Part shown: in pieces, positions 1 through 26,248 of the stretch | How positions within the stretch are numbered: the first letter of the stretch is position 1 | Layout: the number at the start of each line of letters is the position of its first letter | Virus record (IMG/VR): IMGVR_UViG_3300020446_001892 | Span: 19,698-83,697 of that record | Length of the DNA: 64,000 nt | Strand: one strand, 5' to 3' | Origin: a virus | The notes under the pieces: generated by a model | Database searches by the model: none | Told to the model about the DNA's origin: nothing | The model's input: only the letters and a program-made list of their open reading frames with translations | Position numbers and translations under genes: made by a program

Positions 1-1865
1 AATATTTCAGAATCATTTATTAAGTCACTGAATAATCTGCGTCTTTCTGGAGTTAGCATAGGAGCCATATGAATATTACTATATAATTTATTGTCTGGAT
101 CAGATAACGTTATAGTAAATTCTCTATCAATAGCACTATATCCAAATTGATCCCTAGCTGTCACAGTAAACTTATATGTTCTATCAAACCTTGTTGCATT
201 TTGATCTAAGGTAAAAGTTTGTGAATCGAATACAGTTAATCCTGGTTTACCAATAGATCCAAAGCTATTAACTTTACCAATTATTTCTCCTTCTAATGAC
301 AAAGATAAGCCAAAAGGTAAATTTCCTGATTTTATTGTGTAAAGCATTGTAGCGTTAGGAACAGTTGTATTTGCTTTTAATGCTAACGTGCTTATATAAT
401 TTGCACTGAATTCTCCAAGATTTGCAGGAGTTGTCCAAGCAATGGTACTGTCTACTTCTCCTAGCATTTTTACAACAAATGTTTTTTCGCTTTCTGCTAT
501 TTCTTCTTCAACTAATGCAATAGTACCTAAATCTAAACTTGTCTGACTAGGAATAGTATCAATTAATGGAGACGTAAGATTCACAACATCAAAGTCGTTA
601 CTAACATTTACTTGCACGTTAGACACAGTGTATGTTCTACCTAAGTAAGTAAATGTTCTTCCTGGCACTTTTCCAACATATGTAGGATCAAATTTATTCA
701 TTTTAATTTGTGTCAAGCCAGCATTAGTAGACTCATAGGCAAATTTTAAAAGTTGGACTCTATCTGTATCATAACCTATTCTTTTTGCTACAACAGTAAA
801 TTTATATTCAGTTGTAACTGCATTTTGATATGGTACACGCCCAGCTACTTCACCTGTGGTTGTATCCAAAGATAATCCTGGAGGAAGCAAGCTAGGACTA
901 CCGTCGTCGTTAGTACCTTTAAGATAATAAGATACTACACCACTAAGTGTATTTGCATCTATAATATCTAATATTAATGTAACATAATTATTTGCTCTCC
1001 GAAAGCCAAAATCTCTTGGGGTAATCCAGATAGGAACTCTAATATGTGAAATATCAGCAGTAAAAGTATTTGTCCCTACTTGCATAATAGTGTTATCAGA
1101 GCGTAAGAAGTCGTCACCGACAACGTATATTCTAAATTTTCTATTTGCTACTGTATCGCCGTCACTGACAGAAACTATAAATTCATAGTACCTATTTAAT
1201 TTTTTTGGTGATTGAGTAGGTGTGCTTAAATCATAAGTTGTTGTATCATAGTAAAAACTATCAAAACCATTATTATCAGGAATACTCCAGTCATAACCAG
1301 TTTTAAGATCTTCATCATATCCTACTTCATCATAATAACCACTAGCACTCCTTAGTTCTATGGCCCTTATAGGATCAACTATTCCAACTAACCTACCATC
1401 TGTAGTTAGTCTTATGCCTGGAGGTAATTCTCCGCCTAAACTACCTATAAAATATTCTAATTTTTGGCCAGCTTCGGTATCAGTGTCTATAACTTCTAGC
1501 TGAAAATCTATAGGAGCACTATCTAATATATAGTATACACCGTTGTTCCCTGCTGGTAATAAATCTTCAGGAGTTTGCCAAACAGGCAAATCTGCTCCTT
1601 GAACTATTATATTAAATGTTCTATCACTTATTTCGTTATTAAACGTTGCCCTTAAAACAAATCTAAAATTAGTTTCTCTCGGGACTTCTCTTGGTGTGCC
1701 TTTAAGTTGTATACCATCAAGATAAATTCCACCAGGTAACTTTCCGCTTATCAAACTGACTGTAGCATTTGTTTCTGATAGCGGCAAGGTATAAGGAGCA
1801 ATAGTTACTTGCTCGTCAAGTGTAAGAAGTGTTTTACCTGATATTTCTGTCCAATAATTTGCCAT
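1..1865 (-). CDS. Virion structural protein with Ig-like (He_PIG-type) repeats, runs off window start
   Basis: ATG at 1865 (MANYWTEISG...) after AGGGA; repeated LP(P/G)G(L/I)xL...G..xG motifs (LPGGIYLDG, LPPGIRLTTDGRLVG, LPPGLSLDTTTGEVAG); missing from the ORF track because it is truncated. Confidence 0.7.
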   Translation of the reverse strand, partial: MANYWTEISGKTLLTLDEQVTIAPYTLPLSETNATVSLISGKLPGGIYLDGIQLKGTPREVPRETNFRFVLRATFNNEISDRTFNIIVQGADLPVWQTPEDLLPAGNNGVYYILDSAPIDFQLEVIDTDTEAGQKLEYFIGSLGGELPPGIRLTTDGRLVGIVDPIRAIELRSASGYYDEVGYDEDLKTGYDWSIPDNNGFDSFYYDTTTYDLSTPTQSPKKLNRYYEFIVSVSDGDTVANRKFRIYVVGDDFLRSDNTIMQVGTNTFTADISHIRVPIWITPRDFGFRRANNYVTLILDIIDANTLSGVVSYYLKGTNDDGSPSLLPPGLSLDTTTGEVAGRVPYQNAVTTEYKFTVVAKRIGYDTDRVQLLKFAYESTNAGLTQIKMNKFDPTYVGKVPGRTFTYLGRTYTVSNVQVNVSNDFDVVNLTSPLIDTIPSQTSLDLGTIALVEEEIAESEKTFVVKMLGEVDSTIAWTTPANLGEFSANYISTLALKANTTVPNATMLYTIKSGNLPFGLSLSLEGEIIGKVNSFGSIGKPGLTVFDSQTFTLDQNATRFDRTYKFTVTARDQFGYSAIDREFTITLSDPDNKLYSNIHMAPMLTPERRRLFSDLINDSEI

Positions 1866-25919: not shown

Positions 25920-25993
25920 TGGACACCTAGGCCGGACTCGAACCGGCATACACGGAGTTGCAGTCCGTTGCATAACCATTCTGCCACTAGGTG
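25920..25993 (-). tRNA. tRNA-Cys(GCA)
   Basis: Acceptor CACCTAG/CTAGGTG, U73, CCA; anticodon arm ACGGA-CTGCAAC-TCCGT; GGTTCGAGTCC T arm. Confidence 0.93.
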
Positions 25994-25994
25994 T

Positions 25995-26069
25995 TGGCAT
26001 AGGTGGAAGGAATCGAACCCTCTCTTTCAGGTTTGGAATCTGACGTGCAACCATTGACACTTCACCTAC
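25995..26069 (-). tRNA. tRNA-Trp(CCA)
   Basis: Acceptor GTAGGTG/CACCTAT, G73, CCA; anticodon loop TTCCAAA; GGTTCGATTCC T arm. Confidence 0.9.
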
Positions 26070-26105
26070 AAAAAAAGCCCCTAAACAATTTCTTGCTAGG
26101 GGCTT
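26070..26105 (-). terminator. Intrinsic terminator (attenuator) directly 5' of tRNA-Trp
   Basis: AAGCCCCTAGCAA-GAAA-TTGTTTAGGGGC followed by T7. Confidence 0.88.
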
Positions 26106-26131
26106 CTAAATAACTTTTTTAAAAAGTCACG

Positions 26132-26191
26132 TCAAGACATACCCCTGGGCGTAGGAGAACACCAAAATTGTAATGTATTAGTCTTGATCAT
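26132..26191 (-). CDS. Putative attenuator leader peptide MIKTNTLQFWCSPTPRGMS
   Basis: AAGGA SD; adjacent TGG-TGT codons match the downstream tRNA-Trp and tRNA-Cys; lies between promoter and terminator. Confidence 0.8.
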   Translation of the reverse strand: MIKTNTLQFWCSPTPRGMS

Positions 26192-26214
26192 GTATCTATT
26201 CCTTCTTTATTATC

Positions 26215-26248
26215 TATTTATAATAGCACCTTCAATTGACTTTGTCAA
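26215..26248 (-). promoter_or_regulatory. Sigma70-type promoter overlapping a T4-like late element
   Basis: TTGACA-17-TATTAT with extended -10 TG; TATAAATA at 26222-26215. Confidence 0.8.

Follow-up and report, generated by a model that had tools for sequence, protein, structure and literature searches.

The DNA analysed here (the window) is a stretch of 64,000 nucleotides (nt) that forms part of an 83.7-kb IMG/VR virus record, IMGVR_UViG_3300020446_001892. On its minus strand a short leader open reading frame (ORF) and an intrinsic terminator lie between a promoter and two transfer RNA (tRNA) genes, tRNA-Trp and tRNA-Cys. Our data suggest that this element is a ribosome-mediated (leader-peptide) transcription attenuator gating the phage tRNA-Trp/tRNA-Cys unit, which we consider likely from the sequence comparisons, and that the tRNAs are probably made only when ribosomes read the matching codons slowly. 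An attenuator had been proposed in a preliminary description of the window alone, and this reading gains support from the comparison with related phages described below.

Organisation of the leader and its relatives

The promoter is of the sigma-70 type (26248-26220, minus strand, as are all features below) and consists of TTGACA (26248-26243), a 17-nt spacer with an extended -10 TG (26228-26227) and TATTAT (26225-26220), matching 11 of 12 consensus positions. The Shine-Dalgarno (SD) sequence AAGGA (26204-26200) is found 8 nt upstream of the ATG of the leader ORF (26191-26132), which has 19 codons followed by TGA and encodes MIKTNTLQFWCSPTPRGMS. Inside this ORF the two putative control codons, TGG (26164-26162) and TGT (26161-26159), are adjacent. 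The intrinsic terminator (26105-26070) is composed of a GC-rich hairpin, with an RNAfold energy of -17.2 kcal/mol in the window, and a run of seven U (26076-26070), and the leader transcript would be about 145 nt long. The U-tract abuts G1 of tRNA-Trp at 26069 with zero bases between. In a simple terminator scan the main terminator was unlisted and the small CUCCU/AGGGG hairpin discussed below was listed instead.

The tRNA-Trp gene (CCA anticodon, 26069-25995) has an encoded CCA end and one A-C mismatch in the anticodon stem. It scores 45.4 bits with the Rfam tRNA model (gathering score 29), was missed by ARAGORN at default settings and was called Trp(cca) at a relaxed threshold. The A-C mismatch closes the anticodon stem, a G1-U72 pair is also present, and the default miss is probably due to these two features together. 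The tRNA-Cys gene (GCA, 25993-25920) starts 1 nt after tRNA-Trp and was called by both ARAGORN and Rfam. The preliminary description had placed the promoter, SD, ORF, control codons, terminator and tRNAs on the minus strand, with a T7 tract directly against G1 of tRNA-Trp; every coordinate was borne out, the junction being at 26070/26069.

Relatives were gathered in three ways, by the DNA ligase gene downstream of the tRNAs, by a 15-nt leader motif and by a degenerate 23-nt motif, and a broad terminator pattern contributed additional loci, mostly from unrelated phages. The resulting 337 loci (designated by L numbers) were scanned on both strands for a GGGG...TGT.TT[AG]A anchor followed by a terminator, and 76 distinct homologous elements were found on marine viral contigs. 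The element is widespread among uncultured marine phages, some of the contigs being 270-300 kb long, and its recurrence in 76 distinct variants indicates that the arrangement is more than chance. In the ligase-anchored set, which was unselected for the leader motif, 26 of the 35 loci with tRNA-Trp have the leader.

In each of the 76 elements an SD-preceded ORF of 15-24 codons includes W (TGG), the start codon being ATG in 59 and GTG in 17. An SD-like motif was detected by a strict pattern in 66, the same stop codon, located inside the helix P1 described below, is used in 70, and a promoter-like site of their own (TTGACN-16..18-TANNNT) lies 23-37 nt before the leader start in 70. The segment between the W region and the GGGG sequence changes length in whole codons, and 70 of the 76 elements are in frame; L008 and L022 have an early stop at TAG, and L032-34 are frameshifted with a later stop. 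The block GGGGTATGTCTTGAC is preserved in three reading frames, which indicates a constraint at the RNA level. For the 19-codon class, to which 23 of the 76 elements belong with 19 distinct ORFs, the codon-position entropy is 0.39/0.48/0.48; fixed codons are limited to W, the P that follows and those paired in the RNA, and the peptide sequence is otherwise unconserved. Judged from these alignments, this is the pattern of a regulatory leader and not of a functional peptide, and the leader ORF is presumably translated.

The covariance model R1 matches the record only once (136 bits), with no other copy of the element found there, and in Methylophilales phage Melnitz its best hit (E = 0.25) fell short of significance. 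A blastn search of a phage collection with the leader and tRNA-Trp matched only tRNA-Trp genes of unrelated phages, and in exact searches of the GTDB representative genomes both the 23-nt leader motif and the phage tRNA-Gly were absent. Contigs of four marine metatranscriptome sets (best share of sampled words 0.10) returned nothing on the leader, a result that is neutral on expression. In four metatranscriptomes from four studies we observed a 74-77-nt piece identical to the phage tRNA-Gly(UCC) of the window with unrelated flanks, and the same four contain a 56-60-nt tRNA-Cys-like piece with foreign flanks.

Leader folds and the predicted switch

The untranslated leader is predicted to fold into a three-way junction followed by two hairpins, an AU hairpin and the terminator. 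In the minimum-energy fold, P1 joins CAUG-A-UCAAGAC (26192-26181; start codon and codons 2-4) to GUCUUGA-CGUG (26138-26128; last sense codon, stop codon and 4 nt beyond). The P2 hairpin (26176-26159) is formed by ACAUUA (26176-26171) with UGGUGU (26164-26159), and the W and C codons sit in its 3' arm. The P3 anti-antiterminator hairpin (26157-26141) is formed by CUCCU (26157-26153) with AGGGG(U) (26146-26141); the CUCCU:AGGGG pairing (26157-26153 / 26146-26142) is present in the minimum-energy fold, and across the variants CCNCC pairs with GGGG.

The closed structure was evaluated on an alignment, A1, of 51 full-length N-free first-round sequences, L220 having been added by hand and L052 and L129 (5' end cut) and L100 (contains N) left out. 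In A1, 95.0% of the cells pair, compared with 36-56% for slid partners, and seven pairs are changed on both sides, a number equalled in 3 of 500 shuffles. The two helices of P1 are 98% and 94% paired; P2 (helix 3) is 93.7% paired, with two-sided changes in three of its five pairs, and P3 (helix 4) is 95.6% paired with one-sided changes only. In the full set of 76 elements the covariation in P1 is exceptionless: ATG occurs with ...GAC[A/G/T]TG and GTG with ...AAC[A/G]CG, while on the stop side TGA occurs with TCA as codon 2 and TAA with TTA, and AAGAC/GTCTT is further exchanged for AAAAC/GTTTT. The substitutions are limited to those preserving the start codon and the stop codon. On this comparative evidence the start-to-stop clamp P1, which had been overlooked in the preliminary description, is the strongest structural element predicted for the leader. 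An RNAalifold consensus recovered P3 and the terminator and missed P1. In the upper stem of the terminator the pair at columns 148/159 is C-G in 25 sequences and U-A in 19.

In the alternative fold, the antiterminator (26146-26098), AGGGGU (26146-26141) is paired with GCCCCU (26103-26098) of the terminator. The helix is extended by UCU (26137-26135) of the P1 3' strand with AGA (26107-26105) of the spacer, and it is capped by the AU hairpin, GUGACUUUU (26130-26122) with AAAAGUUAU (26118-26110). Folding of 26154-26082 gives this antiterminator as the minimum-energy structure, at -18.1 kcal/mol (z = -2.2; 8 of 200 shuffled sequences were as stable). The mutually exclusive pairings claimed in the preliminary description were thus recovered as the minimum-energy folds of the closed and the alternative segments.

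The switch was modelled by folding the RNA from 10 nt past the first A-site base to the start of the terminator 3' arm. With the A-site on TGG, the GGGG segment and the GCCCC arm were joined by five or more pairs in the minimum-energy folds of 51/51 variants, and the stalled-state antiterminators ranged from -14.2 to -25.4 kcal/mol compared with -14.8 to -21.8 kcal/mol for the terminators. When the ribosome was stepped codon by codon, the antiterminator formed in all 51 variants from codon 1 to one to three codons past W (W+1..3) and in none of the 51 on the last seven positions. The sensing window closes at this boundary, which places W and its neighbour at its very end, and the expectation that masking would permit the antiterminator only with the ribosome at or before the W/C codons is in agreement with these folds. 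A ribosome at the stop codon leaves RNA that is nearly unstructured (-0.2 to -9.0 kcal/mol), so that the terminator could form freely. At the stage preceding emergence of the terminator arm, the minimum-energy fold of the untranslated transcript has P1 in 48/51 and P3 in 48/51 variants, and the full-length minimum-energy fold has the terminator in 51/51.

These folds point to the following mechanism. Transcription would start at the early-type promoter (26248-26220). If no ribosome engages, the RNA would fold co-transcriptionally into the P1/P2/P3 junction, in which P1 clamps the start to the stop region, the terminator would form, and the polymerase would stop at the U-tract, one base before tRNA-Trp. 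Smooth translation to the stop codon would lead to the terminator again, the ribosome then covering the GGGG segment and the P1 3' strand. A ribosome delayed at TGG, TGT or an earlier codon would block P1 and P3, and the freed GGGG segment and P1 3' strand could pair with the spacer and the GCCCCU terminator arm to make the antiterminator. In that case the polymerase would continue into the tRNA genes, and the tRNAs would be released from the transcript by RNase P; such read-through on stalling is suggested by the modelled folds. Since the stall would occur at codons that the tRNAs produced can themselves decode, the arrangement would amount to a supply-on-demand feedback loop for UGG and UGU decoding. 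The biological trigger may be a decay of host tRNAs after shut-off, a codon mismatch or an anticodon nuclease of the host, the last of these being speculation.

Control codons, tRNA cargo and alternative explanations

The relation between leader codons and tRNA cargo was examined in the 70 of the 76 elements for which a tRNA cluster was called and the downstream sequence extended to 600 nt or more; the six cut-short ones were dropped. In 70/70 tRNA-Trp(CCA) is the gene that comes next after the terminator. Among 461 distinct upstream contexts a strong terminator lies no more than 12 nt upstream of 44 of the 82 tRNA-Trp genes, compared with 0 of the 379 other tRNAs, and no leader for another amino acid was indicated by an abutting terminator before these 379 non-Trp tRNAs of the fetched loci.

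A Cys codon flanks W in 39/39 clusters with tRNA-Cys and in 22/31 without (Fisher p = 3e-4), the nine leaders lacking it having R, G, N or Y at that place in several backgrounds. AUA is present in 10/10 leaders with tRNA-Ile(UAU), with a mean of 3.0 per leader, and in 13/60 without (mean 0.45; p = 3e-6). Two or more AUA codons occur in 16/17 leaders whose clusters have tRNA-Ile(UAU) or a CAU tRNA and in 1/53 without, and the CAU tRNAs linked to AUA-rich leaders may be lysidine-type AUA decoders. Similarly, two or more CAR codons are found in 7/7 leaders with tRNA-Gln and in 9/63 without. For tRNA-Ser(UGA) two or more UCR codons were counted in 7/12 leaders with and 8/58 without (raw Fisher p 0.004), the independent pairs being mostly ties. 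As an example, the leader of L315, ...QQSLIICWCPSQ..., precedes a Trp-Ser-Gln-Cys-Ile cargo. The window obeys the rule, with Trp and Cys as cargo, W-C in the leader and AUA absent, and it has one control codon per tRNA and no tandem run. Between the W-C and C-W classes TGG shifts by one codon within P2 while the frame is kept. The match of control codons and tRNAs noted in the preliminary description for the window is therefore found also among the relatives, and the co-variation that was expected there is seen in AUA, which tracks tRNA-Ile(UAU)/CAU, and in CAR, which tracks tRNA-Gln.

A number of observations weigh against an attenuator of this kind and should be considered. The flanking Cys codon is retained in most of the clusters without tRNA-Cys, as given above, and in the 70 clusters the Pro codons after W are unassociated with tRNA-Pro. 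Kinship was addressed with pair tests on a tree of short flanking RNA. For Cys these gave 2-3 pairs in the same direction, 0 opposite and 3-4 ties (p 0.25-0.5), and for AUA 4 same, 0 opposite and 1 tie (p 0.125). Neither result is significant, a pair test with fewer than six informative pairs being unable to reach 0.05, and both tests point in the expected way. The invariance of TGG could be partly structural, TGG being inside P2. In the antiterminator the GGGG:CCCC pairs are invariant and show zero covariation; 94% of the cells can pair, and the pairing score was equalled in 57 of 500 shuffles. Compensatory changes between these segments, proposed as a check in the preliminary description, were not seen, and with all four G-C pairs unchanging the antiterminator gains no support from covariation. 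In L081, L117 and L123 a C-to-U change in the terminator CCCC still permits G-U pairing with the GGGG segment, which is anecdotal. In a ribosome-free RNA with the 3' arm unmade, the antiterminator is thermodynamically favoured in 46/51 variants (median 4.9 kcal/mol), and this preference implies that default termination depends on P1 and P3, which would presumably act as a kinetic trap in the untranslated state. Furthermore, 9 of the 35 ligase-anchored relatives have a promoter directly before a leaderless tRNA-Trp, indicating that the module is dispensable. Added tRNA would also not relieve stalling that results from lack of the amino acid itself.

The promoter, ORF and terminator make up a unit that is complete in itself, and could accordingly represent a small-protein gene or a stand-alone small RNA; the tRNAs would then come from transcripts that leak constitutively past the terminator, and codons would not be sensed. 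Conservation is apparent at some peptide positions (M-x-K-T-N-T, W-P, G-M-S), and in Sinorhizobium attenuator RNAs and leader peptides (rnTrpL/peTrpL) can act in trans (PMC6614838, PMC7968998). However, the conserved codons coincide with P1, P2 and P3, the 3' block is kept in three frames, third-position bias is absent, and in the window the U-tract and the tRNA touch. Moreover, the element is always joined to tRNA-Trp (70/70) and its codons follow the cargo, which is unexpected of an independent gene, and we regard this explanation as improbable.

The layout of the leader is also aptamer-like, in that the 3' strand of the closing helix competes with the expression platform, and the UGGC sequence could pair with the GCCA 3' end of tRNA-Trp, or UGG with the CCA anticodon. 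It could therefore be argued that the P1-P2-P3 junction is an aptamer for a ligand or for tRNA-Trp in an untranslated riboswitch or T-box-like RNA controlling the terminator. Neither a T-box model, at an E value of 1 or below, nor any other riboswitch model matched the leader in the window region or in six relatives. The leader is only about 145 nt long and has an ORF. The SD spacing is ideal, the start and stop positions hold only start- and stop-compatible bases in 76 variants, insertions and deletions are of whole codons, and TGG stays in frame when it moves one codon within P2 (W-C versus C-W). The tracking of cargo by AUA, Cys and Gln codons is explained only by decoding. This makes an untranslated RNA very unlikely.

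We give equally little credence to a nascent-peptide arrest sensor, TnaC-like or based on a W-P-P stall dependent on elongation factor P (EF-P), whose signal would be free tryptophan or the state of the elongation factors. Ribosomes do stall at PP motifs and on TnaC-type peptides, and in most variants P or PP comes after W, but the window leader reads W-C-S-P-T-P with no PP, the peptide is poorly conserved apart from W, the P codons constitute the CCNCC strand of P3, and a ribosome modelled as stalled on the second P or on the stop codon covers GGGG and leads to termination, giving no switch.

Genomic setting, known systems and significance

The order of features on the minus strand is tRNA-Gly, a small CxxC...CxxC ORF, the promoter, AAGGA, the leader ORF, the GC-rich hairpin, tRNA-Trp(CCA), tRNA-Cys(GCA), a second promoter and the ligase gene. 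The phage tRNA-Gly(UCC) is located at 26494-26421. The small ORF (26405-26232), situated between tRNA-Gly and the leader, is zinc-ribbon-like with two CxxC pairs, and its last codons overlap the leader promoter; a homologue precedes the leaderless tRNA-Trp in L077. The second promoter (25912-25884), downstream of tRNA-Cys, is of the same type as the leader promoter and is followed by the gene for an ATP-dependent DNA ligase. This promoter family has 13 matches in the window at two or fewer mismatches, where 1.93 are expected, all of them on the minus strand. Relatives of the ligase with 74-92% identity are present on at least 80 marine viral contigs, while no relative above 34% identity was found in cultured phages. 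A putative curli locus and a putative two-piece transfer-messenger RNA in the window would fit the pelagimyophage-like marine myophages described in PMC7029224, and the virus may be a candidate member of that group.

Several additional RNA features were observed at the related loci. About 20 further leaders are set apart from tRNA-Trp by an insert of 70-95 nt. In 19 distinct variants (alignment A2; for example L035:2524-2616) a conserved structured RNA of about 75-95 nt, absent from the window, lies between the U-tract and tRNA-Trp. This RNA is closed by a 10-bp stem that shows compensatory changes, and it also contains a CUGCA/UGCAG helix and a hairpin of the GAAA type; 5 of its 17 predicted pairs co-vary, and it corresponds to no Rfam family. 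In L116 (12982-13051, minus strand) the stretch separating the terminator from tRNA-Trp has a second mini-ORF, MEKGKMTDSEYWRWMKSQVE, with two Trp codons. A glutamine riboswitch (glnA RNA, RF01739; 42.5 bits, gathering 35) is found at L078:1795-1843, a few hundred bases upstream of the leader promoter. At L103:1-78 the 3' part of a manA-like RNA (RF01745; 23.7 bits, E = 0.023), cut by the locus end, stands directly before the leader and replaces the usual promoter, and a similar sequence occurs upstream in L115 and L307. The tRNA-Ile(UAU) downstream of tRNA-Trp in L023, L048 and others was called at about 94 nt, approximately 20 nt over the usual length, and some relatives have tRNA-Trp genes of 85-88 nt with a long extra arm.

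Of the features that characterise leader-peptide attenuators, an SD-led short ORF, cognate control codons, an intervening terminator and an upstream 1:2 sequestering pairing are found in the phage element, and a mutually exclusive antiterminator that forms on stalling is predicted from the folds. In E. coli trpL and in the his, leu, thr, ilv and pheA leaders an SD-led short ORF with control codons likewise precedes an intrinsic terminator, the antiterminator shares the 5' arm of the terminator, an upstream pairing locks the antiterminator strand in the absence of stalling, and the control codons lie at the end of the sensing window. These leaders regulate biosynthetic enzymes, whereas the phage element would regulate tRNAs, a product that decodes its own control codon. 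The phage element further differs in having usually one TGG and no tandem run, together with codons for the other cargo tRNAs, in its extra start-to-stop helix, in being phage-borne and in remaining unmatched by the Rfam leader models above threshold. Among these models Phe_leader (RF01859) was the sole match in the window, at 26186-26068, with 23.4 bits against a threshold of 55 (E = 0.82), and 0/6 related loci matched Trp_leader, Phe_leader, His_leader or other leader families.

The pheST operon of E. coli, with its leader pheM, is a case in which leader-peptide attenuation controls a translation component for the amino acid of the control codons. The product of pheST is an aminoacyl-tRNA synthetase, whereas that of the phage element is tRNA, with several specificities sharing one leader. 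T-box riboswitches similarly sense the state of a specific tRNA and use a terminator/antiterminator switch upstream of translation-related genes, but they bind uncharged tRNA without translation, whereas the phage element has an ORF and would sense decoding speed. The rnTrpL/peTrpL system of Sinorhizobium meliloti is also a Trp attenuator, in which the terminated leader RNA is a discrete small RNA; trans roles were shown by experiment in that system (PMC6614838, PMC7968998), whereas the phage element gives no sign of a trans target.

The mechanism class is thus a textbook one. What is new with respect to the literature searched is the tRNA-gene cargo, the mixed control codons that track it and the start-stop clamp helix. 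Searches of the literature on leader-peptide attenuation and phage tRNA genes returned no description of tRNA-gene attenuation.

It is tempting to carry the proposal one step further, although we consider this extension tentative and rather doubtful. The leader could be an evolvable multi-codon meter of decoding capacity, its codons being rewritten to mirror the tRNA cargo, with Trp always included and Cys, AUA-Ile, Gln and Ser when present. The cargo would then be switched on only when, during infection, the host can no longer supply those tRNAs, whether through host shut-off, a mismatch in codon usage or a tRNA-cleaving defence. If this were true, each leader would record which host tRNAs become limiting, and the P1 clamp would limit sensing to the first ribosome behind the polymerase.

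Why phages carry tRNA genes is a question that has been asked for fifty years. The explanations now offered, codon compensation and evasion of defences that target tRNAs (PMC10264068), are both hard to test. In the element described here the phage itself appears to state the rule, namely that tRNA genes are transcribed when their codons are read slowly. If confirmed, this would be the first leader-peptide attenuation of tRNA genes, with a product that decodes its own sensor, and phage tRNA expression would be conditional and not constitutive. The element would also provide a compact natural sensor of codon-specific decoding speed that is transferable to reporter systems.

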